From positions 44,869 through 108,868 of IMG/VR virus record IMGVR_UViG_3300037991_002562: 64,000 nt of DNA. One strand, written 5' to 3'. Position numbers and translations under genes: made by a program. Numbering within the stretch: position 1 is the stretch's first letter; every line of letters begins with the position of its first letter. Of the stretch, positions 5,622-55,156 are shown piece after piece. This stretch comes from a virus. Lineage: Duplodnaviria; Caudoviricetes. Below the pieces are notes generated by a model. It saw only the letters and a list, made by a program, of their open reading frames with translations. It searched no databases and was not told the DNA's origin.

Positions 5622-6356
5622 ATGGCAAAATTTAGCTGGAATGAAGATAACACTGCGCAACTAGTAGACATGGTAGGCGCTCCTGACGAGACAATTACTC
5701 AAGCGCAACTAATCGAAGTAGCAGAACAACTTGGAACATCAGCACGTTCTGTAGGTTCTAAACTTCGTAAAATGGACTACAGCGTACAGAAAGCTAGCGA
5801 AGCTCGTAGCTCAGCATGGTCTGAAGCAGAAGAAGCAGAATTAGTAGCATTCTTAGACGCGAACAGCGGTGATTACACTTACGGCGAAATCAGCTCTGCT
5901 ATCCTAGGCGGGAAGTTCTCTCCTAAACAAGTACAAGGTAAAGTACTTAGCCTAGAAAAAACATCTGACGTAAAGCCAACTGAAAAAGTTGCTCCACCAC
6001 GTAAATATACTGAAGAGCAAGAAGCTAAGTTTGTAGAGATGGCTCAAGCCGGTGAAAGCCTTGAAGCAATTGCAGAAGCGTTAGGTGTAAGCCTTAACTC
6101 TGCTCGCGGTAAAGCTCTAGCGCTAACTAAGTCTCATAATATCGAGATGCCTAAGCAAGCGAAAAGCAACGCACAAGCTCGCGTAGACGTATTTGAAGGC
6201 GTTGACGTTGAAACAATGACAGTAGAACAACTAGTAGAAGCTACTGGACGTACTGCTCGCGGTATTCGTTCTACACTATCTCGTCGTGGCTTAACATGCG
6301 TAGACTACGATGGTGCTGCAAAGCGTAAGAAGTTAGACGAAGCATCTGCTGAGTAA
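5622..6356 (+). CDS. D5: T5 D5-like DNA-binding transcription regulator
   Basis: Repeated W/Y-x-E-E HTH-like units; position after ligB. Confidence 0.85.
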   Translation: MAKFSWNEDNTAQLVDMVGAPDETITQAQLIEVAEQLGTSARSVGSKLRKMDYSVQKASEARSSAWSEAEEAELVAFLDANSGDYTYGEISSAILGGKFSPKQVQGKVLSLEKTSDVKPTEKVAPPRKYTEEQEAKFVEMAQAGESLEAIAEALGVSLNSARGKALALTKSHNIEMPKQAKSNAQARVDVFEGVDVETMTVEQLVEATGRTARGIRSTLSRRGLTCVDYDGAAKRKKLDEASAE

Positions 6357-8697: not shown

Positions 8698-11052
8698 ATG
8701 AAAATAGCAATCATCCAAAAATGCCCATCCAAGACTGAATACCAGAAACTGTTCATGTTACAGAATCACGAGGTAGAAGTCTACAACCTATCAAGTACTA
8801 AGGTTTCTCGGCTACTTAAACGAGATATAGACCTTACAGACTTCGACCCAACTAAATTCGACTACGTAATCCTCGTAGGTTCTGAAGCTCTAAAAAACTA
8901 TACAAAACAAACATCAGTAACCGATTATACCGGAAAACAAGTTGAAGGTAAATGCGGTTATCCTAATTTCATTGCTAGTATATCACCAGCGATGTTAGCA
9001 TTTAAACCAGAAAACAAGCCTGTGTTTGACTTAACTGTAAAAGCTATCCATAATATATTTGGTGGCGTTGAAGAAGACATGGCAAATAAAAACTACGAGT
9101 TCTACAGAGAGACTGAAGATATTAAGAAGTTTCTTAGAAGAGCTGAAGCCCACGGAACTGACGTAGTAGCGCTCGACTCCGAAACCAGTGCATTAGAACC
9201 TAGAGAAGGGTACATGCTCGGTATCTCTGTAACATACGAGCTTCACCAAGGAGCTTACCTAGACTCGGATGGACTAGACCAAGAATGTGTTGATATTCTA
9301 CAAAAAATTATCGATACTAAGGACGTAGTATTCCACAATGCTAAGTTCGATATGAAGTGGTTTCTTTACCATTTAGGCGTAAGGTTTGACCACAGAGAAG
9401 GTCACGTACACGATACAATGATTCTTCACTATCTGTTAGACGAGCGACAAGGTACTCACGGACTGAAATCTTTGGCACTTAAATACACAGACTTAGGGGC
9501 ATACGATGATGAACTTGACGAGTGGAAGAAAGATTACATAAAACAGTATTCTATTGACCCAGACACATTCTCGTATGACCTAATACCTTGGGACATAATC
9601 AAGGTGTATGCAGCAAAAGATACAGATGCTACATTCCAACTGTTCCGTAAGTTCTACCCTATTCTTATTAAGAACAACAAATTAAAATACTGTTACGAAG
9701 AGCTACAACTACCAGCACTTCACTTCTTAACTAGAATGGAAGACCGTGGAGTTCCGGTATCTGCTAACAGACTTCTAGAAGCTAATAACTACCTAGACAG
9801 TCAGCTATCAGCTTACCGTAAGCAGCTATGGGAAGTAGAAGAAGTAATAGAGCTAGAGCAAGAGCAAGGAGCAGTGTTTAATCCTAACTCTGTTCAGCAA
9901 ATTAGAAAGCTACTGTTTGATAAAGTAGGCTTAAAACCGACAGGTAAATTGACAGGCACAGGTGCAATCTCAGTAGACAAAGAGGTGCTAGACACTCTAG
10001 CTGCTCAGCATAAAGTACCAAAGCTTATTAAGAATATCAGAACGCATTTAAAACTTAAATCAACCTACATATCTAAGCTAATACCGTGTATTAATTCAGA
10101 TAGTAGAGTACGAACAGGGTTTCACCAAACCACGACCACTTCGGGTCGATTGTCCTCATCAGGTCGATTTAACATGCAGCAGCTCCCAAGAGATAATCCT
10201 ATTATCAAAGGTTGTGTAGTTCCTCCTGAAGGTTATAAAATAGTAGCCTTGGACTTAACCACCGCAGAAATTTATTTTGCGGCTGTCTTATCGGAAGATA
10301 AGGCAATGCAGCAAGTATTTATCAACATGAAGAAAGACCCTGATAAATACCCTGATTTTCATAGCAACATAGCACATATGGTGTTTAACTTACCATGCGA
10401 ACCTAAAGATGTAAAAGAGTTATATCCTGCGCTAAGACAGGCAGCAAAAGCCATTAGCTTCGGCATTTTATACGGGTCAGGCCCAGCTAAGGTAGCAGAA
10501 GCGGTTAACCTAGCGTTCCTAGAGAATGACCAACCTGCAACTTGTACTGTAGAAGATGCTAAAGGATATATCCAAGACTACTTCCGCAGATTCAAGCAGC
10601 TTAAACGTTGGATTGATGAATGTCATAACCAAATCAAAGAGCATGGTTTCATCTATAACCACTTTGGTAGAAAGCGCAGACTACGCAATATTAACTCTAA
10701 AGACAGAGGTATTGCTTCTGGTGAAGTTCGTTCAGGATTTAACGCAATCATCCAGTCTATCTCTAGTGATTCATTGCTACTAGGTGCGATTGATGCTGAT
10801 AAGGAAATCATAGAAAAAGGATTCCCTGCTGAAATCTTCGCTCTAGTACATGACTCCATCGTGGCAATTGTTAGAGAAGACAAAGTAGAAGAGTACATCG
10901 AGCTAGTAACTAGAAATGTACAAAAAGACCGTGGATGTTCAATCCCTGATTGTCCTGTTGGTCTAGAGGCGGACTCAGAGCCAGGTGGTTCTAGAGACTA
11001 TTCTTGTGGTAAATTAGAAGCTAAGTATCCAGACTTAGCTAAGGTAGCATAA
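8698..11052 (+). CDS. Family A DNA polymerase with 3'-5' exonuclease
   Basis: DSET, HNAKFD, YAAKD exo motifs; TSGRLSS, DLTTAE, RQAAKAISFGILYG, VHDS. Confidence 0.97.
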   Translation: MKIAIIQKCPSKTEYQKLFMLQNHEVEVYNLSSTKVSRLLKRDIDLTDFDPTKFDYVILVGSEALKNYTKQTSVTDYTGKQVEGKCGYPNFIASISPAMLAFKPENKPVFDLTVKAIHNIFGGVEEDMANKNYEFYRETEDIKKFLRRAEAHGTDVVALDSETSALEPREGYMLGISVTYELHQGAYLDSDGLDQECVDILQKIIDTKDVVFHNAKFDMKWFLYHLGVRFDHREGHVHDTMILHYLLDERQGTHGLKSLALKYTDLGAYDDELDEWKKDYIKQYSIDPDTFSYDLIPWDIIKVYAAKDTDATFQLFRKFYPILIKNNKLKYCYEELQLPALHFLTRMEDRGVPVSANRLLEANNYLDSQLSAYRKQLWEVEEVIELEQEQGAVFNPNSVQQIRKLLFDKVGLKPTGKLTGTGAISVDKEVLDTLAAQHKVPKLIKNIRTHLKLKSTYISKLIPCINSDSRVRTGFHQTTTTSGRLSSSGRFNMQQLPRDNPIIKGCVVPPEGYKIVALDLTTAEIYFAAVLSEDKAMQQVFINMKKDPDKYPDFHSNIAHMVFNLPCEPKDVKELYPALRQAAKAISFGILYGSGPAKVAEAVNLAFLENDQPATCTVEDAKGYIQDYFRRFKQLKRWIDECHNQIKEHGFIYNHFGRKRRLRNINSKDRGIASGEVRSGFNAIIQSISSDSLLLGAIDADKEIIEKGFPAEIFALVHDSIVAIVREDKVEEYIELVTRNVQKDRGCSIPDCPVGLEADSEPGGSRDYSCGKLEAKYPDLAKVA

Positions 11053-43794: not shown

Positions 43795-45078
43795 CTATAC
43801 AGTAAAGCTATATAAAGCATATCTCAACGCGTCAGCTATGTGGGAAAATGCATCATGGATAGGTTTAGGCTTTAGTAGCTCAGGACGAGGATCCCACCTA
43901 TAGTTAGCTAACATATCTATAGTGTGTATACAAGATTTGTCAACTATTAGCTTACCGCTATCTACCATACTCTGAACATATGCTATACCGTCCAGTACTG
44001 ATTTTTTACTGGGGTTGGATGGTATATCGTGTAGCTCTGCTAAATCCTGCCTAAACTGTGCAGCGGCAGAATCACAGAAGACAAAGTCTGTGTCTTCTCC
44101 CATCATCTTTCTTATATGTTCTGCGTGTTGGTCTGTATTTCTTTGCGCTTCCAAGTACTCATCAACGATATAAAATACCTTAGAGTCGAAGTCATAATAG
44201 ATTTTAAGTACCGCAGTAGGGTCTTTATAACCAGCGTCAATACCCATAATAGCATCGCAATTTTTAAAGTCACGTCCAGACAAGTCCTGAACATACTTAT
44301 CGGCATCGAACCCTTCGTATATCTGACCTTCGAACGTTGTAAAGTCCGCTTCATACTCTTGTCTAAACTCCGCATTAGACATTGAAAGCTTAGCCTCTGC
44401 AATGTCAGCCTCAGACGTTCTAGGATTATCTCTCCATGTAGAGTGTATTGAAGCCCAGAAAGGGTACTTGTCGTCATATCCACGCATGTAGAAGTCATGG
44501 AAGTAGTTAGTACCACGAGGTGTTGAAATAAATATAGCTTTAGAATTGTCTTTGTCTAGAGTAGGACGTAGCTGGATGTTGAAAGCATCCACACCTTTAG
44601 GGTCTAGTGCAGCTTCGTCAAATAGTATTAGGTCATAAGAACGACCTACACAAGAGTTAGCCTGAGATACAGAACCTAGCTTTATTAGAGAACCATTCTC
44701 TAGTACAATCTCTTTATCCTTAGCATTCATTTTCTCAGTTTGTATATCGTGCTTCTTAATAAGCTTTAACTGCTCTGTCCATGAAATGTTAGATAGTGAG
44801 TAGTTAGGCGATATAATAAGTATTTGTGTGCCAGGCTCTAGAGCCTTTAGGAACGCTATGTGGTTAGCACTAAATGTCTTACCTGTACGTCTCGAAAGAC
44901 ACCCCACCACGAAACGATGGGCAGGGTCATTGATAGCATTGATAAGAGCTATCTGAGGAGGTATTAACTCTACCCCCTCTAACTCGAAGAATTGGTCGAC
45001 TGGAAGCTTTAGAAATCGTTTCTCTAAAGGAAAGTCTTGCAGCTCTTCAAAGTTAATACTGGCTCTAGATACTTCCAT
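43795..45078 (-). CDS. terL: Terminase large subunit
   Basis: SRRTGKT, LFDEAA, ISTPRG, GIDAG, H.ADALRY. Confidence 0.96.
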   Translation of the reverse strand: MEVSRASINFEELQDFPLEKRFLKLPVDQFFELEGVELIPPQIALINAINDPAHRFVVGCLSRRTGKTFSANHIAFLKALEPGTQILIISPNYSLSNISWTEQLKLIKKHDIQTEKMNAKDKEIVLENGSLIKLGSVSQANSCVGRSYDLILFDEAALDPKGVDAFNIQLRPTLDKDNSKAIFISTPRGTNYFHDFYMRGYDDKYPFWASIHSTWRDNPRTSEADIAEAKLSMSNAEFRQEYEADFTTFEGQIYEGFDADKYVQDLSGRDFKNCDAIMGIDAGYKDPTAVLKIYYDFDSKVFYIVDEYLEAQRNTDQHAEHIRKMMGEDTDFVFCDSAAAQFRQDLAELHDIPSNPSKKSVLDGIAYVQSMVDSGKLIVDKSCIHTIDMLANYRWDPRPELLKPKPIHDAFSHIADALRYALYSFTV

Positions 45079-47929: not shown

Positions 47930-47970
47930 TTGTATTATTTTTACCCACGGTTAGGTAATGTGCTGTTTAA

Positions 47971-48092
47971 GTTTGAGATCAGCGCTGTATAGTACTTCTA
48001 TAGTTTAGTCATTTTTCTAAGTGTTACACGCGTTTGAGATCAGCGCTGTATAGCACTTCTATAATTTAGTAATTTTTCTAAGTGTTACACGC
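47971..48092. repeat. Tandem 61-bp direct repeat x2
   Basis: 47971-48031 and 48032-48092, 3 mismatches. Confidence 0.9.
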
Positions 48093-48185
48093 GTGTAAGA
48101 GTACCCCCGTATCTAAATGAGAACAAGTCTCATTACCGCCCTATGGGTATGGGATCGCATACCTTAGTACACGATCCCGATCTTA

Positions 48186-48569
48186 CTACTCTGTGTCGTC
48201 ATCAGATCCCATTTCTAGATCGTCAATGATTGCCGCTTGCTGCTCAACGAATGCCGCTAACGCTTCTAACTCGCCCTTGTTCGCTTTCTCCAAGCTGTCA
48301 ACCGTTAGACCTGTTGTTTCAGCGATTTGCTTAACAACTTCGATTTTACGCGTTGCGCTTGGGTTGCCAACCTTAGCTTTGGCATCTGGTGAAACATATT
48401 CTTTCATGCTAACCAACTTCTGACGGACGCTGTTTTCTGTTACGTCAAACTGTTGACCGATAGCTTTAAGCTGCGCCTGTTCAAGCGCTTTGCCGCTATT
48501 AGCTTCAATAGCTGCCGCGTATGTTGCGCTCAATTTCGCTGTTGTTTCTTCTGTCCAAATTTTAGCCAT
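48186..48569 (-). CDS. A2: Pre-early A2-like DNA-binding protein (second-step transfer)
   Basis: W.EE.T.K...Y, SVRQKL.S.K.Y, KVG..S..RK, SLEKA.K..L as in T5 A2. Confidence 0.85.
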   Translation of the reverse strand: MAKIWTEETTAKLSATYAAAIEANSGKALEQAQLKAIGQQFDVTENSVRQKLVSMKEYVSPDAKAKVGNPSATRKIEVVKQIAETTGLTVDSLEKANKGELEALAAFVEQQAAIIDDLEMGSDDDTE

Positions 48570-48664
48570 GATTTGATCTCCTTAGATCGTAAATTAAATG
48601 TTGGTTTGTGTTTGCGGTCGTATTTTGCCCCGACCGCTTGAGCATTAAAACAAATTTCGCTTAA

Positions 48665-50326
48665 CTATGCAATAACTTTTTGGGGGTTCAAGGTGATTAA
48701 TTGAACTTGCCCGTTGCTGTATTCCATCATGTGACCGTGATCCCACGATGACGCGCCCCCACGGTTATAGCCTTGGTTCAGTCGAGCGGTAACGCCTGTC
48801 GTAAACACTGAGCCTATTATGCATGGGCTATGGGTGTGTCCTGTTATTAGGTTTAAATTCCAGTCCTTGAACTGATTTGGGTTTCCTGCGCTCCCGTTAG
48901 CTCCTTTATGTCCGTGTTGCGAGTAATCGAATTTTAACGGTTTAAATGGCTTGTCCATTCGACCAAAGTGCACATTAGTCGGCAACTCTGGCAACGTGGT
49001 TAAATCAGCATTTTCTAGGGCGATTTGCAACGCATTTTTCTCATGTTCGCCTTGGTCTAAGGTATCGCACACTAGCCAGTTAAGCAGATAGTATAATTTG
49101 CTGTTGTGGCTGTCCTGCTTGGGGTTGACGCTGCTATCATCCAGCCAGTTGTCTAGGGCTGAGTTATGGTTGCTTTCAGTAATTGAAACGGTATCAACTA
49201 GGGTTGATAGTTCGGTCAACTGATAGATCACCTGTTTAAGATCGTTCTCAACGCTTTCATGTCGATTTGCGTACAAGTGTTTCCCACTGTTACGGTTATG
49301 GTGAGATCTTGTGCTAAAGTGTAAAATATCATCAACTGCGATCACACTTGGTTTAATCCGATCCAAAAATTCAACTGTTTTTTCCCAATACGCTTGGTCA
49401 TAAACTTCACAGTGTAGATCACCTAGCTTTCCGGCTTCTGGTAACTTGCCATAAAAATATTCGAGTTCAGGTAACACCACATTCAACGATCCGTCATCGC
49501 CTTGAAAGACGTTGGTAACATTATAGCCACCGTCGCACTTGTAAACGATCATGGCTGCCTGCTTGTGATCTTTTTCCGCTTCTGCCCCTGCGCGGCTTCT
49601 GGTGTAGTTGTACGCGGTACAGCTACCAGTAGTGACCGCCTTTGTGACAGATTGATCATTGAGTCGCGGCAATGTTTTATACTGTTGCTTGGGGCTTGCT
49701 ACTACCGTGATCAATTCACCGCTGTTCAGCTTTGCCGCTGCGTTAACTGGTACTTTGTTAGTCGGTAGCACTGCCGCTGTGCTGGCAACTAGGCAAGCGT
49801 TTTTCTCGAATAGCCAACAATCATCAAGCTGTAAATATTGTAGGATCTTAGGATTGAAAACTTCTTCCTCTTTCTCTACCGCTGGACTAAAGGCGTTTTT
49901 GTTATAGTAAACGGGCATTACCATTAAACGCGCATCTAGGCTGGCAGATTTCATGTCATCGACTAAGGCAAGAAGTTGATCCTCAAAGCCTGTGGTAATA
50001 GTGTTATTTTGTGCGCTTGTAATTACGAAAACATCACCGTCTAGAACTGGTAATAAATCGCGCTGTGATTGCGTGTAACCAACTTGTGTATCTGCCGCTG
50101 GTTTAGTCGCTGCGCTTGGCTTTTTCGCTTTCTCTGCCTCTCTCTGGCGTTCTAGCTCCTCAATAACTAGCGGCATTAAGATAGATGCGTCACCATTAAG
50201 ATCAAGGTTATGGATCGCATCCTCAACAACTTCCAAGCGTGAATCACGTTTACGCTTGCCTAAAAGGTTATTTTCTGCGCACTCTGCGCAGAGTAGATCA
50301 AATTTCTTATCGTTTAAAGGTTTCAT
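48665..50326 (-). CDS. A1: Pre-early A1-like protein (host DNA degradation/second-step transfer; metallophosphoesterase fold)
   Basis: ITSAQNN, TTGSCT..NY...AG, GDLH, ESNHN, QHGH, GHTHSP; 553 aa. Confidence 0.9.
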   Translation of the reverse strand: MKPLNDKKFDLLCAECAENNLLGKRKRDSRLEVVEDAIHNLDLNGDASILMPLVIEELERQREAEKAKKPSAATKPAADTQVGYTQSQRDLLPVLDGDVFVITSAQNNTITTGFEDQLLALVDDMKSASLDARLMVMPVYYNKNAFSPAVEKEEEVFNPKILQYLQLDDCWLFEKNACLVASTAAVLPTNKVPVNAAAKLNSGELITVVASPKQQYKTLPRLNDQSVTKAVTTGSCTAYNYTRSRAGAEAEKDHKQAAMIVYKCDGGYNVTNVFQGDDGSLNVVLPELEYFYGKLPEAGKLGDLHCEVYDQAYWEKTVEFLDRIKPSVIAVDDILHFSTRSHHNRNSGKHLYANRHESVENDLKQVIYQLTELSTLVDTVSITESNHNSALDNWLDDSSVNPKQDSHNSKLYYLLNWLVCDTLDQGEHEKNALQIALENADLTTLPELPTNVHFGRMDKPFKPLKFDYSQHGHKGANGSAGNPNQFKDWNLNLITGHTHSPCIIGSVFTTGVTARLNQGYNRGGASSWDHGHMMEYSNGQVQLITLNPQKVIA

Positions 50327-50391
50327 ATATAACGGTTTCCCTATTAAGGTTTTTTAAGGGGCTATGAAGCCCCCGTTACGGGTTGATCAAA

Positions 50392-50907
50392 TTAATGACC
50401 GTGAAAAGGAACGTGAATTGCTTTCATGTTCAAGCGCTGTGCCATTTGGCAGTTTGCTAGATTATCATCGACCAAAAATGATCGCGATAGCTCAAGCGAT
50501 GAAAACGCGCGGGTTAAGTGGTACTCTTTTAACTCAAAATCACGACGGCGATCATTCTCGCCCTCTCTGGAAAAGATCGCGGTAGGTTTGATTCCGTTCT
50601 TGCGTAGCCACTTGTTAGAATTATTGCACATAACGCGAGCAGTGCAAACAAAAAATGATCTTCCTGCATCAGTTAGGAACTGCGGCACTTCTGCCAGTGG
50701 CATAACTTGATCTTTTGCAATGTTTGCCGCTGTCGATAATTTGCGGTACATTTCAAGGTTAAGCGATCCATCTGGGTGTATCGCTTGGCGGTGTGTAGCA
50801 TCGATCACCACACCATCAAGATCAAAAATAGGTATAATGCTCTGATCCAATAGGATCGCATCAGTCATTTGAAGCGCTGCGGCTCTGGTATTTTGAATTG
50901 TTAACAT
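50392..50907 (-). CDS. dmp: HAD-family deoxynucleoside-5'-monophosphatase
   Basis: FDLDGVVID..HR, G.LNL..Y, CTARVM, VDDN. Confidence 0.85.
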   Translation of the reverse strand: MLTIQNTRAAALQMTDAILLDQSIIPIFDLDGVVIDATHRQAIHPDGSLNLEMYRKLSTAANIAKDQVMPLAEVPQFLTDAGRSFFVCTARVMCNNSNKWLRKNGIKPTAIFSREGENDRRRDFELKEYHLTRAFSSLELSRSFLVDDNLANCQMAQRLNMKAIHVPFHGH

Positions 50908-51429
50908 CTGGTTAACTCCCGTTTAAGGTATATAAAAATATACGTTGGGGCGTTGTGCCTCTCAACTGTTACCCATTATATATAGCAATAAACTTTTGTC
51001 TACATTAGTTTTTATACGTATGTATGAAATTATATACTTTTCATTTGCTCTATTATGTGCTACCCTACCAGCAAATGCAAATGAGAATGATTCTCAATTG
51101 ACCGGCTCCGCCAGGTCGGAACGACCAAACGCAAATGATAATGATTCGCATTCAACCGCGCCGATTTTCGGTCGCTTTCCCAGTTATGGCTTATTATTAC
51201 ATTTACGTGTAGGTTTGTCTAGGACTGAATAGTTCTAAGAATGAATTTATTTAGGCGATTTTGTTATATAGTGAATTGTGGCATTCTAGCAATTACTGTG
51301 CCAACTCAAAAATCGTGCCAAAGTCGCAAATCACGCACAATGCCTCTAAATGGCTCTGTATTGGGAGCATGAGGCAAGCCAAGCAAGTGCATTGCTACAC
51401 CCCAGAAGTCTTCTCAGATTGCCATTGTG

Positions 51430-52113
51430 TAAGTCATTGATTTTAAAGGGAAAAATAATGCTTGACAAGCCAGTGGCACGATTTTTTCTATTGCATAAGT
51501 CGTGCCAACCTTTATTGGTCAATTTCACTACTTTTTGGTTAAATGCTCGATTGGTACGATTCTTGCTAGTAAAACTTTTTGGTACTGCTAATACAAATGA
51601 GAATGATTCGCATTCTCGCCGATTTTGCATACTGGCACGAAACTTGCTTAATGAGAACGGTTCGCAAATGAGAATAGTTGCTATTTAGAAATGGCATGAA
51701 AGTTGCTAGGGAAGTTATCCACAGGAACGTGTGGGTAAGTGAAGTTATGCACAATACTGTATAAATATACAAGCGCTCAGCAGCAGCTGGTGGACTTATC
51801 CACAGAAAATTGTGGATAAATATACCTGTATAGATATACAGTAGTTTTAAGTTGTGGGTAACTAAAACATACCGTTTAAAGCTCCTGTATCGCATTCTGG
51901 GGGGGTTTTTAGGTCGGAGTAATACTAGGGGTTAGGGTGTGGTAGAGTACGAGGGTGTAAAAAATCCTGACCTGGTGTCGAGAAACTTTACAACGCTAAG
52001 TTATTGATATACAAGGATTTTTTGTTTTTTGACGCTAAAAACTGTCGGGTTTCTTTACACTGGCACGGTTCTGTTATGTGCTGGTTTAGCAAAAATTAGC
52101 TAAGTTATTGATA
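51430..52113 (-). promoter_or_regulatory. Three IHF consensus sites
   Basis: WATCAANNNNTTR exact matches at 51430, 51997, 52101. Confidence 0.75.
51715..51861. promoter_or_regulatory. DnaA-box cluster interleaved with LexA boxes
   Basis: TTATCCACA at 51715, 51796, 51811(-); 1-mismatch boxes at 51730, 51745, 51853; CTGT-N8-ACAG at 51826 and near-match at 51757. Confidence 0.8.
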
Positions 52114-52186
52114 TATAGGGGTTTTTCAAAGTTGGCACTAGGGTTGCATTATATATAGTGTGTCACGGGGCACATACTAAAACAAA

Positions 52187-52537
52187 ATGAGAATTATTAT
52201 CATGTTAAACAAAAAAATCCAAATTACTGAGAATGTTGTTATTTCACTATATCGTTGCAATGCTGAAACTTTGGGTGTAGATATTGTACGCTTTTATTTT
52301 AAAGGCGAATTAGTAGGCACTTACATTTCAACAGTGTTTGAAAAACGTGCAAGCGTGTGTTTATATGAATTAGTTGATGAGGTAGCATCAGAAGAAGCAA
52401 AAGCATTTTTACTAGAATGCTCTAACCAAAAAGAAATACTAAAAACTCTAAAAGGATTAAAAGATATTAGAAAAGACTTGACAAACGAAGATAAAGCTAT
52501 TTTTAATGTTTACCTAAAAGCGTTTGACGTGAACTAA
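52187..52537 (+). CDS. Pre-early hypothetical protein
   Basis: 116-aa ORF; start overlapped by a Fur-like box. Confidence 0.55.
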   Translation: MRIIIMLNKKIQITENVVISLYRCNAETLGVDIVRFYFKGELVGTYISTVFEKRASVCLYELVDEVASEEAKAFLLECSNQKEILKTLKGLKDIRKDLTNEDKAIFNVYLKAFDVN

Positions 52538-52842
52538 GCAAAAACCGTGCCAAGTGAGAAAGTCAAGAACTTTCTCACTTGTGTAAATGAGAATAGTTCT
52601 CATCTGGCCGCGCCGATTTTACAGCATAGCGAGGCGATTGTCAAGTTAAATTTTACACGTCCGACCAGTTAAAAAAGTGTTGCTGTTTTATACTTTATAA
52701 TAAAGTGGGTCGCGCCGATTTGGCAATGCGAATGATTCTCATTTACGCCCGATACGTGTCTGGTATGACCAGTGAAAAAGTTGTTGCGGTCTGTGCGGGT
52801 AGCTGTATAATGATTACATCAACTAGAGACAGGGAGGCAGCT

Positions 52843-52983
52843 ATGAACGTGGCTCAGATTATCGGATTGTTATTTTTAGCTATGGCTCTAGCTACACTTT
52901 TTTCTAGAGAGCCACTGGCATCGATTCCGGTGGCTACAATAGGTGTGTTGCTAATATTTGGCGACACTGAGAAACCAATTTAA
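52843..52983 (+). CDS. Small two-helix membrane protein
   Basis: GGAGG RBS, hydrophobic 46 aa, TATAAT at 52806. Confidence 0.6.
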   Translation: MNVAQIIGLLFLAMALATLFSREPLASIPVATIGVLLIFGDTEKPI

Positions 52984-53049
52984 CCCCGTAGGCGATAACC
53001 GCCATTTTGCCCCGTCTATATGGGCGGGGCACTTTTTAAGGGTAGGATA

Positions 53050-53241
53050 ATGGATAAAAAATTCGGCTGGTATGGTGCTGGCCTAATGGTAATTTTTAGT
53101 TTTACCTTGTTGCCGGTATTCGGTATACTAGGCTTAACGTTGCTTACGGTGCAAGCGGTTAGCACTAAGCAACATAACTTGATAGCTCTAAATACATTCA
53201 GCATACTAGGGCTAATTTTAAACTCTACGGGAGTAATTTAA
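53050..53241 (+). CDS. Small membrane protein
   Basis: Hydrophobic 63 aa, AGGA RBS. Confidence 0.6.
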   Translation: MDKKFGWYGAGLMVIFSFTLLPVFGILGLTLLTVQAVSTKQHNLIALNTFSILGLILNSTGVI

Positions 53242-53242
53242 T

Positions 53243-53641
53243 ATGTTTAAGCAATTCGCAGCAACACAAATCCTAGCTAATGCTATCGCTTCGGTCTTAG
53301 ATTTGGGAAAGGATCTAAGTTGTGAAAATGTGGTTTCTACAATGATGGTAGAGGCAAGCAAAAACGAAATACCAGACGCGGACTTAAAAACTTTCAGCGT
53401 GCACACGATTGTGGTGGCAACGAATACACCAACCACCCCAATTGTCGCAAACCTAGAAGAAATTGCGCAAGCGGATGATCCTTTGATGCATTTGGCTGGT
53501 TGTATACTGAGTGAGGAAAATCTGTTAGGGATACAAAAAACCCTAGAAGCTGAACCTGACGAAGACGAGGAAGAAGGTTCACTTCTTGGTGTGGTTCGTA
53601 ATTTGCGTGGCAATGTGCGCATTGAAAAGGATGTAAACTAA
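53243..53641 (+). CDS. Pre-early hypothetical acidic protein
   Basis: GGAG RBS, operon context. Confidence 0.65.
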   Translation: MFKQFAATQILANAIASVLDLGKDLSCENVVSTMMVEASKNEIPDADLKTFSVHTIVVATNTPTTPIVANLEEIAQADDPLMHLAGCILSEENLLGIQKTLEAEPDEDEEEGSLLGVVRNLRGNVRIEKDVN

Positions 53642-53898
53642 TGCCGTGCCGCGACCCATTGACAGACCACGAACTGGAAGCCGCTAAACTGAAAAACAAA
53701 CTTGACAAGGTAACAGACTTGTTATGTGAAGCCTGTTCAGTTATCGAGACTAACGGTATGGACGACGATTGTAGCCTTGAATTAAAACAGTGGATTGCGG
53801 ATCATTTTCAGGCAGATCAAAACAACGTCAGGCGACAAATTGAATTGTTGTCGGTCGCAGAGTTGCGCAAAGTTGTGAAGTTTTTAGACAGTCTATAG
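53641..53898 (+). CDS. Pre-early hypothetical protein
   Basis: MPCRD...LLCEAC...W...H pattern seen in phage proteins. Confidence 0.65.
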   Translation: MPCRDPLTDHELEAAKLKNKLDKVTDLLCEACSVIETNGMDDDCSLELKQWIADHFQADQNNVRRQIELLSVAELRKVVKFLDSL

Positions 53899-53907
53899 GG
53901 GGCAGCT

Positions 53908-54162
53908 ATGGCGAACACATCCATTGAAAAGGGGCGTTCGCCAACGCCTCTCAGGACAGTAAGCACAATTCGCAGAGAATTGCAAGCGCTAGAAAATCAG
54001 GCTAACGAGATAGCGCGAAGTAGCTTTTTAGCGTATGAGTTTTTATCTAGCGATTTGCTAGAGCAGATTAATGCGAAAAAATCAACTATTAATTTTCTCA
54101 CTACCAGAATAAGACGGCGCAAGCTTTACAACTGGCTGAGAAAGAAGACGGGGTGTAAATGA
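53908..54162 (+). CDS. Pre-early hypothetical basic protein
   Basis: RBS and operon context. Confidence 0.55.
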   Translation: MANTSIEKGRSPTPLRTVSTIRRELQALENQANEIARSSFLAYEFLSSDLLEQINAKKSTINFLTTRIRRRKLYNWLRKKTGCK

Positions 54163-54485
54163 TTACCATACAATTAGACGATATACAAGCTAAATTATTA
54201 GCTAACCTATTAAATGGTGAGAAGCTAATACCGCAAGAAGTGAGGGAGCTTGTTCCACTGGTCAACCAGCTTAATACTGGCACAATGAACCGCGAAAAGT
54301 GGATTCAAGGACTAGCAGAGGGCAAGCGCTACACACATGAATACTTTACTAGTAGTGAGTGGGTACAAGCAAGTGCTGTGCCAGAACATCTGGAATTTGA
54401 AGACGGGGTATTATGCTCTATCGAAGAATTTGAGCGCTACCGCGAAGGCTGGCCGCATGACCTATGGGAGGAGATCGAAAAATGA
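54159..54485 (+). CDS. Pre-early hypothetical protein
   Basis: ATGA overlap; G.R.THEYF...EW. Confidence 0.6.
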   Translation: MITIQLDDIQAKLLANLLNGEKLIPQEVRELVPLVNQLNTGTMNREKWIQGLAEGKRYTHEYFTSSEWVQASAVPEHLEFEDGVLCSIEEFERYREGWPHDLWEEIEK

Positions 54486-54922
54486 TTGACCACCTTGACC
54501 AACTAGTACCTTGGTGTTTATAGCTGAATAAAAAGTGCATATTTATGCACTTTTTTGCATAACCGCGCCACTCCAGCACACGGATTCCCACCTATACAGT
54601 ATAACAGGTCTACACGTCAAGTCAAGCACTTTTTCCTGAATACAAATCTAAATGAGAATGATTCGCATTCAACCGCGCCGATTTTACCACACTCTGACAC
54701 AAAAAACAAGTCCGACCAGTACATGCGAGTGGTTCTCATTTAACTTTTTGAATCTAAATGATAACGATTCGCATTCGCAAAGTAACCTTATTTTTCGACA
54801 AATAAATTTACCGAAGGTTTACCCCGATAGGGGAGCGCAGCGACCTGCGCCAGAGTACGATTTCGACTAGTACTAAACCGACCGCTGCCCCTACGTGTAA
54901 GCTACCCTGAGTACTAATCCGA

Positions 54923-55156
54923 CTACCATGGCGGCTTGTCCCAATCTTCAGCGGGCACTACGGCTTCTGACGGGCGTGCTGTGCTGGTGGAGTTAGACGG
55001 GCGCGAAGTGCCCTGCGCCGGAGTACGATTCTGACCGAGTACTAGACCGACCGCCTCTGCCAAGAGCAGGAGTTCGTCTTTCTTAGCAGCACTGAGGCTA
55101 GGGGCAACAATGTTTAAGTGAGTACAAATCTGATTGGCTATATCTGTCTTAGTCAT
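54923..55156 (-). CDS. Small protein resembling the A2-family C-terminal helix module
   Basis: TK.DIA.QI...L.....SL..AKKDELL.LA. Confidence 0.5.
   Translation of the reverse strand: MTKTDIANQICTHLNIVAPSLSAAKKDELLLLAEAVGLVLGQNRTPAQGTSRPSNSTSTARPSEAVVPAEDWDKPPW

Follow-up and report, generated by a model that had tools for sequence, protein, structure and literature searches.

A conserved array of putative DnaA, LexA and sigma54 sites in the pre-early non-coding DNA of T5-like phages

Why does a T5-like phage carry, in pre-early DNA that encodes no protein, a dense cluster of sequences resembling the binding sites of several unrelated host regulators? The question is raised by positions 50908-54922 of a 64,000-nt stretch of viral DNA (Duplodnaviria; Caudoviricetes), which corresponds to positions 44,869 to 108,868 of the IMG/VR record IMGVR_UViG_3300037991_002562 and is called the window here; coordinates are those of the window unless another record is named. 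This region makes up 3.6% of the genome, its non-coding part amounts to 2,021 nt, and the evidence supports its assignment to the non-coding DNA of a T5-like pre-early module, with the genes dmp, A1 and A2 alongside. An earlier note on this DNA had described it as first-injected DNA tiled with consensus sites for Fur, sigma54, DnaA, LexA, IHF, FadR and ArgR. We find that the sites lie far beyond chance expectation, are confined to the pre-early module and are conserved across the family, T5 included, which makes the predicted array a stronger feature than the earlier note knew. Our preferred explanation, to which we assign a probability of roughly 0.5, is that the region is a conserved cis-acting array, homologous in organisation to T5 repeat regions 1-3, that would be loaded by host DnaA, LexA and sigma54 holoenzyme.

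The copy numbers of the earlier note were reproduced by our inventory: 11 Fur-like palindromes (the AAATGAGAATNATTCKCATT family), nine sigma54-type sites, six DnaA boxes, two LexA-type palindromes and three IHF-core matches (Table 1). The consensus strings, which are gammaproteobacterial, were not drawn from a database. Five sigma54-type sites are exact (TGGCAC-N5-TTGCW) and four carry one mismatch; since they are alike solely in the -24 and -12 elements and differ in spacers and flanks, they do not appear to be recent duplicates. Seven of the nine are intergenic, as had been claimed for the whole set, whereas the site at 54368 lies within open reading frame (ORF) 54159-54485 and that at 52537 overlaps the stop codon of ORF 52187-52537. 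Judged against the 9-mer consensus TTATNCACA, the DnaA boxes comprise three exact TTATCCACA, one TTATGCACA and two TTACCCACA. LexA-type sites were defined as CTGT-N8-ACAG palindromes with an AT-rich centre (consensus TACTGTATATATATACAGTA); the one at 51826, CTGTATAGATATACAG, has a single mismatch in 16 positions, and the one at 51757, which ends in ACAA, has two. The IHF core that was scanned (WATCAANNNNTTR) is degenerate, and two of its three matches are copies of one 28-nt repeat. The picture of largely back-to-back matches fits a core at 51596-51861, the only truly tiled stretch, in which sites take up 185 of 266 nt by hand count; elsewhere it overstates the density, as motif cores cover 22% of the non-coding DNA when five host-type classes are counted and 29% with everything listed.

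Scans of the whole 108,868-bp genome on both strands confirm that the pre-early region holds a dense cluster (counts are given as region/genome). Exact sigma54 sites number 5/5, and 9/11 with up to one mismatch; the LexA 16-mer, allowing up to two mismatches, gives 2/2, the Fur 7-1-7 form 3/3 with up to two mismatches and 9/18 with up to three, and the exact IHF core 3/9. For the DnaA box TTATCCACA the exact count is 3/4, and 6/27 of the matches with up to one mismatch fall in the region, so that only the exact class is discriminating. When the 2,021 nt of non-coding DNA were shuffled 300 times with dinucleotides preserved, no shuffle reached the observed counts for sigma54, Fur, DnaA, LexA, IHF or FadR; ArgR was the exception, with 29 of 300 shuffles doing as well. 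The proposed ArgR site is a single box with two mismatches, against the two adjacent 18-bp ARG boxes required, and we read it as a terminator because a perfect 12-bp hairpin and a T-run directly follow the last gene of the rightward operon. The FadR site and half-sites also fall away. Against the 17-bp palindromic operator consensus (AACTGGTCCGACCAGTT) there were 0 matches with up to two mismatches, and the best had at least three mismatches in 17; the half-sites, which are the two 3-mismatch matches, are copies of a repeat, GTCCGACCAGT (52659 and 54710), and the candidate at 52758, with five mismatches by hand count, fits merely a generic GGT-N3-ACC palindrome. Eight control consensuses (CRP, FNR, PurR, TyrR, PhoB, Zur, NtrC and Cra) gave no match with up to one mismatch in the region, which argues for a specific set of sites rather than a general likeness to regulator sites. 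As the phage genome encodes no sigma54 activator (PF00158), Fur-family or LexA DNA-binding domain, the canonical ligands would be host proteins.

Nucleotide searches of the region against the phage collection, in near and distant modes, returned no match, and relatives were found through the A1 protein, borne by 1,131 records, and through short sequence patterns. Ten T5-like records were compared (T5, Roth50, DU_PP_V, TS3, phi 3, Chester, pVp-1, 234P7B and two IMG/VR contigs), with hosts in Escherichia, Klebsiella, Pectobacterium, Aeromonas and Vibrio or from uncultured sources. The LexA 16-mer, with up to two mismatches, is present in all ten, at two to five copies per pre-early region, and was found nowhere outside that region in these records of 37-127 kb, the reversed-pattern control giving 0. 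In phi 3, Chester, pVp-1, 234P7B and Aeromonas phage TS3, exact sigma54 sites fall solely within pre-early non-coding DNA; whole-record scans found none in T5 or Klebsiella phage Roth50, and Pectobacterium phage DU_PP_V has one TGGCAT variant in its pre-early DNA. A putative LexA (SOS) box thus occurs in every T5-like phage examined, and candidate sigma54 sites in the Vibrio and Aeromonas phages and in this lineage. The Fur-like pattern TGAKAATNATTMTCA, with up to one mismatch, occurs three times each in T5, DU_PP_V and phi 3, twice each in Roth50 and TS3, once in pVp-1 and five times in L005, a close IMG/VR relative described below, and lies within the pre-early region in every record that has it.

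Order and spacing are conserved as well. Between 51692 and 51861 the sites run sigma54, DnaA, (DnaA), DnaA, LexA-like, DnaA, DnaA, LexA, DnaA, and the order sigma54, DnaA, LexA-like, DnaA, LexA is common to phi 3, pVp-1, Chester and related contigs. In these phages and in 234P7B and TS3, the sigma54 site lies 7-10 nt upstream of a DnaA box and the module ends in a common tail, ATACCGTTTAAAGCTC. The Vibrio and Aeromonas phages differ from the present one in having two or three sigma54 sites and few Fur-like ones, against nine and eleven here, in an A1 that is only ~45% identical (the T5-like vibriophages being nonetheless its closest relatives in the phage collection, with T5 A1 at ~32%), and in showing no nucleotide match beyond short elements. 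Over IMG/VR, one DnaA-LexA junction pattern hit solely contigs of 37-128 kb (7 stretches on 5 contigs) and a second solely contigs of 96-123 kb (33 stretches on 23 contigs). Non-T5-like phages of Alphaproteobacteria with an A1 homologue (Rhizobium, Citromicrobium, Rhodobacter) had no arrays; their A1 modules are tightly packed and hence uninformative on host tracking. Sequence comparison therefore supports a core module of predicted sites common to T5-like phages of five host genera.

T5 offers the closest parallel to what was already described. In its record (AY587007), palindrome D (9330-9349) agrees with the LexA 20-mer in 19 of 20 positions, another LexA-type copy lies in inverted repeat D at 6135, and both abut DnaA-box pairs. 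Copies of AAATGAGAATCATT, the AAATGAGAAT element of the sites that had been assigned to Fur, make up direct repeat C and palindromes E-I (9468-9637), and the first-step (FST) shear point, put at ~9618 in the parts of Davison 2020 (10.1101/866236) drawn on here, falls within this stretch. The region resembles the T5 stop region (Repeat Regions 2 and 3, left terminal repeat) in being non-coding pre-early DNA beside dmp, A1 and A2, in its clusters of DnaA boxes, in a CTGTATA-N2-TATACAG palindrome directly beside a DnaA-type box, in its AAATGAGAAT repeats and in conservation above that of neighbouring genes; like the T5-type repeat region, it is a large untranslated block with paired DnaA boxes, palindromes and repeats that is kept among relatives. 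It differs in having one module, in a central non-coding block, where T5 has an inverted pair of modules; in DnaA boxes set as inverted pairs 6 nt apart instead of tandem pairs 3 nt apart; in nine sigma54-type sites, against no exact match in T5; in a CGCCGATTT box of its own lineage; and in the order of the leftward operon, which is dmp-A1-A2 here and A2-A1-dmp in T5, as also in phi 3 and Chester. The same sections of Davison 2020 describe the T5 DnaA boxes and suggest that the palindromes may be sites of a restriction type; neither Fur nor LexA nor sigma is mentioned in its abstract, its section 3.3 or the passages covered. Papers of 2023 and 2026, in the parts considered, list repeats, palindromes and DnaA boxes in the stop region and ascribe a tested function to none of them. 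The literature on T5 and T5-like phages that we searched with LexA, SOS box, Fur, RpoN and sigma-54 describes no such sites, a search whose scope did not extend to the T5 papers of 1987 and 2005, Davison 2015 or supplements. The claim that such an array was undescribed thus appears to hold for its putative LexA, sigma54 and Fur-like sites and their family-wide occurrence, whereas the DnaA boxes were already known in T5.

L005, an IMG/VR contig whose A1 is 93% identical and whose non-coding DNA is ~86% identical over 50.9-51.96 kb, allows a comparison at shorter range. The sigma54-type site at 51552 reads TGGTACGATTCTTGCT here and TGGCATGAAACTTGCT in L005, with the -24 and -12 elements kept and the spacer altered, and the Fur-like sites at 51080 and 51134 are both kept despite the loss of 14 nt from the spacer between them. 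No LexA position has changed (0 of 32); 3 of 54 DnaA positions have, all of them variable or weak, and 3 of 55 sigma54 positions, two of which form a TGGTAC>TGGCAT swap beside an altered spacer. L005 diverges completely between ~51960 and 52800. Metagenome contigs compared with the window show a mosaic of insertions, deletions and cassettes. In one variant, a 44-kb contig of run X16, 53643-54486 is replaced by 972 other letters, and no alignment is obtained over 51536-51689; the small pre-early ORFs and part of the array are therefore exchanged as cassettes.

How might such an array act? Its core elements coincide with predicted high-affinity sites for proteins present in any gammaproteobacterial cell, and host proteins are likely to bind the LexA box and the exact DnaA and -24/-12 sites, because each of these matches its consensus in the strongest form and is kept in phages of five host genera. 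The idea of a host-protein binding platform therefore survives in a narrower form, with near-consensus, conserved non-coding sites retained, ArgR and FadR lost, and the ligand of the Fur-like sites ambiguous. Array DNA would be inside the cell before any phage protein, so that pre-existing DnaA, LexA and sigma54 holoenzyme could load at once, with Fur or A2 perhaps joining the loaded complex and the sigma54 holoenzyme sitting on its promoter without firing. The resulting nucleoprotein complex would act in cis: it may hold or pause the DNA at the envelope, restart its transfer, or govern when pre-early genes are transcribed or the second transfer step takes place. It would not act through depletion of host regulators.

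Several observations weigh against this explanation. Each ligand is assigned by likeness to a consensus, and the sites are accordingly putative. The sigma54 sites vary from none in T5 and Roth50 to two in phi 3 and nine here, and the single module of this phage lies, unlike those of T5 and the vibriophages, in a central non-coding block and not at a repeat boundary. The terminal-repeat ends given below are probable positions, the assembly being circular and collapsed and the public metagenome runs consisting of contigs. In L005, 17 of 202 motif positions overall have changed, as compared with 98 of 741 elsewhere, a difference that is not significant (p = 0.069); eight of the 17 belong to one Fur-like copy that borders a 61-nt deletion. 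Since the deleted block holds three sites, single sites seem to be dispensable. The expectation that motifs but not spacers would be conserved is thus borne out for the sigma54, DnaA and LexA elements and modest as an overall contrast, with the motifs apparently constrained and individual copies expendable. Matches to the Fur-like pattern with two mismatches are about as frequent as those of the reversed control in several records, which leaves only matches with up to one mismatch informative. A genome-wide E. coli screen, in the parts of the paper considered, names no lexA, rpoN or dnaA among the determinants of T5 infection; such screens would miss essential genes and mild effects. The remaining difficulties concern the Fur-like repeats. 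The 11-copy family is where it had been reported, but it has a consensus of its own, TGAGAAT-G-ATTCGCA, which departs from the Fur 7-1-7 form at 3 of 14 specified positions, and its left half is better conserved than its right. The CGCCGATTT box occurs five times genome-wide, each time 2-5 nt from a Fur-like site, and in Chester and phi 3 a Fur-like element is found again 12-31 nt from the physical end of the genome.

These properties of the Fur-like family are also what favours the rival that survives best, namely that phage proteins (A2, possibly A1 or the terminase) bind the repeats, above all the AAATGAGAAT family, with the likeness to host consensuses being incidental; such binding could serve pre-early shut-off, a restart of DNA transfer or the marking of repeat ends. 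A family with its own consensus, asymmetric conservation and an adjoining lineage-specific box, which among the relatives examined is found beside Fur-like sites only in L005, speaks for a phage-encoded ligand. Because a Fur-like copy adjoins the physical end in relatives, with a comparable copy at 48115 here, a phage protein such as A2 is an equally good candidate ligand for these repeats. In phi 3 and Chester another copy lies ~30-36 nt upstream of the A2 start codon by hand count, like an autoregulatory operator. A2 is only 26-36% identical across eight phages, yet a V-R-x-K-L stretch is invariant in all eight and its family (PHROG 1725) is annotated as DNA-binding; owing to this stretch, A2 could read a family-wide motif, which also counts against the host-protein explanation. 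A2 residues 8-51 gave weak matches to the C-terminal part of RpoD (E ~0.2) among solved structures, and since a profile of the eight sequences did not reproduce the match and found nothing significant, we make no claim about its fold. The Pfam search assigned no family to A2 or to the small pre-early ORFs; A2 homologues carry a precomputed Pfam family, PF26822, that this search did not report.

Phage-protein binding hardly explains the LexA box, found in 10 of 10 records and at 19 of 20 positions in T5, nor the exact DnaA R-type boxes or the exact -24/-12 elements with free spacers. Even for the Fur-like family the comparison with host Fur is not lost. Of the two Fur box forms considered, a 19-bp GATAATGATAATCATTATC and the 7-1-7 form TGATAATNATTATCA, the best copies here match the latter with one mismatch in 14 positions (52188) or two (51082 and 51136), and perfect 7-1-7 boxes with 0 mismatches occur at 233-247 of T5 (AY587007) and 113-127 of Roth50. 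Those perfect boxes sit within the dmp gene, 113-233 nt from the left genome end, and phi 3 and DU_PP_V each have a one-mismatch copy 19-32 nt from the record start. Whether host Fur or phage A2 would bind the Fur-like repeat is ambiguous, and for the array as a whole we regard binding by phage proteins as unlikely but far from negligible. A related observation comes from an overexpression screen in E. coli BL21 (PMC7553319), in which, according to the parts of the paper considered, fragments raising ferrous-iron uptake protect against T5 and a T5-like phage, an effect that its authors explain by Fur acting as a repressor of fhuA, the receptor gene. Such protection could hypothetically also arise by a second route, through Fur-type boxes carried on the DNA that enters.

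Another possibility is ordinary gene regulation, with pre-early genes responding to SOS through LexA, to iron through Fur and to a host enhancer-binding protein through sigma54. The sigma54-type site at 52133 is indeed at promoter distance from ORF 52187, a Fur-like site covers the start codon of that ORF, and another overlaps a predicted leftward -35 element at 51081. Most sites, however, face no gene or lie antisense (52537 and 54368, both on the minus strand), prediction gives no sigma70-type promoter for the stretch from 51508 to 52132, which includes the DnaA/LexA module, and the phi 3 module is directed into the 3' end of a convergent operon. The lack of a phage sigma54 activator speaks against it too, and repression of the essential A1 and A2 genes by holo-Fur or LexA would presumably harm the phage. 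An operator role fits a few sites (52133, 52186, 51080) and not the module, and as an account of the whole array we consider it doubtful and clearly on the improbable side.

A replication or packaging element, in which DnaA boxes and IHF sites together serve as an origin-like or end-processing site linked to the terminal repeat, is very improbable, since, according to section 3.3.3 of Davison 2020, T5 origins map close to the middle of the genome and the first-step DNA contains no replication genes. The array does lie in or beside the terminal repeat in T5, phi 3 and Chester. The pairs of DnaA boxes and the IHF cores do resemble an origin or a datA-type locus, but LexA and sigma54 sites have, to our knowledge, no packaging role. 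The least probable explanation is the decoy that the earlier note had envisaged, in which titration of host regulators by the array would derepress or silence their regulons in trans. In its favour, the sites are numerous and strong, involve several regulators and could, at nine copies, matter most for the scarce sigma54. One entering copy, however, brings only 2 LexA, 6 DnaA and 9 sigma54 sites (relatives bring fewer, phi 3 having 2 sigma54 sites), a module whose order and spacing are conserved points to an assembled structure rather than a mere number of sites, and control of host regulons would be pointless because the T5 host chromosome, in the accounts of T5 drawn on here, is degraded within minutes, during the transfer pause.

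A conserved cis-acting array loaded by host proteins would also have partial counterparts outside T5. The datA and DARS loci, in which DnaA boxes are clustered with an IHF site, work independently of any gene and regulate the nucleotide state of DnaA on the chromosome; the region is like them in combining several DnaA boxes with IHF-core matches as a possible protein-loading locus and not an operator, and unlike them in that its cluster is carried by phage DNA that enters the cell and has LexA and sigma54 sites interspersed. In temperate phages and mobile elements, a host LexA box over the lysogeny or induction promoter couples the element to the SOS state. Here too a host-type LexA box is found on a mobile element, but the phage belongs to a strictly virulent type, and its box has no predicted promoter over it. 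Finally, sigma54 holoenzyme binds transcriptionally inactive chromosomal sites, often intragenic, as reported in the parts of Bonocora et al. 2015 (PMC4591121) considered here. Those sites resemble the present ones in having consensus -24/-12 elements, in many lacking a gene to drive and in that holoenzyme can sit without an activator; they differ in that the present sites form a cluster in the non-coding DNA of a phage and are kept from one phage genus to another.

The phage genome is a single contig of 108,868 bp with 40% G+C, whose ends overlap by 99 bp, indicating a circular assembly in which any long terminal repeat has collapsed; its DNA is present in marine metagenomes from six studies. 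Since the phage is uncultured, we infer that the region is first-injected DNA from homology with T5 (dmp, A1, A2). The pre-early genes and other features are collected in Table 1. To the left of the operon lie terminase, portal and head genes. From the terminal-type palindrome at 48115 we place the probable physical left end of the genome near 48.09 kb, ~10-35 nt to the left of that element; A2, A1 and dmp would therefore enter first and the array next. Just left of this probable end are two tandem 63-nt direct repeats (47970-48095), one copy of which is missing from a metagenome variant, where a contig joint leaves out 61 nt between 48010 and 48072. On the right, the repeat probably ends near 54.9-55.1 kb, at the transition from Fur-like sites to other direct repeats. 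Past the last Fur-like site, at 54843-55053 and partly within a doubtful ORF (54923-55156), are two ~45-nt direct repeats (…CCTGCGCC-GAGTACGATT…AGTACTA-ACCGACCGC…) and a third, shorter copy; their position recalls T5 direct repeat D beside the repeat boundary, while the likeness in sequence is weak, and a CCGAC word in a looser form, tried as a link to that repeat, showed merely mild enrichment. On the minus strand of 52540-52644, a strong leftward sigma70-type promoter (TTGACA-17-TAAAAT, 11/12) faces a Fur-like palindrome and then the perfect 13-bp hairpin at 52551-52581 with a T-run, and could produce a short antisense RNA that runs leftward over the end of ORF 52187-52537. An Rfam search of the region found no RNA family.

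Table 1. Predicted features of the pre-early region and its surroundings (window coordinates; for site classes, start positions; ligand names denote likeness to a consensus).
Feature	Position	Strand	Remark
Terminal-type Fur-like palindrome, variant AAATGAGAACAAGTCTCATTACCGCC, then ACCGCC	48113-48138		palindrome at 48115
Pre-early operon dmp-A1-A2	48186-50907	-	PHROG 415, 1745, 1725; tblastn to T5, phi 3, Chester
A2	48186-48569	-	PHROG 1725, 'DNA binding protein'
A1	48665-50326	-	PHROG 1745, 'DNA transfer protein'
dmp position	50392-50907	-	PHROGs 415, 505, polynucleotide kinase/phosphatase-type
Sigma70-type promoter of dmp-A1-A2 operon, TAGACA-16-TATAAT	50975-51002	-	11/12 matches
Fur-like sites (11)	51080, 51134, 51596, 51650, 51667, 52186, 52586, 52726, 54651, 54723, 54757
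Sigma54-type sites, exact (5)	51288, 51633, 52133, 52537, 54368	-, +, +, -, -
Sigma54-type sites, one mismatch (4)	51474, 51492, 51552, 51692	+, -, +, +
DnaA boxes (6)	51715, 51730, 51745, 51796, 51811, 51853
LexA-type palindromes (2)	51757, 51826
IHF-core matches (3)	51430, 51997, 52101
CGCCGATTT words (5)	51159, 51617, 52611, 52713, 54676
Two Fur-like palindromes and one CGCCGATTT box	51080-51169		palindromes 51080-51098 and 51134-51152; box 51158-51169
Four sigma54-type sites and an IHF-core match	51288-51567		sigma54 51288-, 51474+, 51492-, 51552+; IHF core 51430
Tiled core, left part	within 51596-51861	+	Fur-like, CGCCGATTT box, sigma54 (51633), Fur-like x2
Tiled core, right part	within 51596-51861	+	sigma54 (51692), DnaA x3, LexA-like (51757), DnaA inverted pair (51796/51811), LexA (51826), DnaA (51853)
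Conserved ATACCGTTTAAAGCTCCTGTA element 3' of module	51869-51889	+	near-identical string after module in pVp-1 and related contigs
28-nt direct repeat (51995, 52099)	51995-52126		IHF-core match in each copy (51997, 52101)
Overlapping sigma54 (52133) and sigma70-type (52132-52159) elements, then Fur-like site	52132-52204	+	Fur-like site over ATG of ORF 52187-52537
Second non-coding block, part	52537-52842		sigma54 (52537-), perfect 13-bp hairpin (52551-52581)
Second non-coding block, rest			two Fur-like sites each with CGCCGATTT box, GTCCGACCAGT repeat (52659), CTGGT-N3-ACCAG palindrome (52760)
Six small pre-early-type ORFs without family assignment	52843-54485	+	last holds sigma54-type site (54368-)
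Terminator hairpin of rightward operon (earlier 'ArgR')	54530-54561	+	12-nt arms, 100% complementary, T-run
Third block	54651-54775		three Fur-like sites (54651, 54723, 54757), CGCCGATTT box (54675), GTCCGACCAGT repeat (54710)

The pause in T5 DNA transfer after ~8% of the genome has been without a mechanism for decades. If its elements are read as candidate LexA, sigma54 and Fur-like sites, the opaque stop region yields a few named candidate proteins; most of these have viable mutants and can be purified, so that the question can be put to the test in T5 and E. coli K-12. For a phage that is strictly virulent, a LexA box would be out of the ordinary. In a more specific and quite improbable version of the mechanism, two-step transfer would be gated, the entering DNA being clamped by DnaA, LexA, sigma54 holoenzyme (in marine hosts) and possibly Fur, and released when pre-early nuclease action destroys the host DNA and so sets off RecA-dependent cleavage of LexA. 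If that were true, the SOS signal of the host itself would determine when the second transfer step takes place.

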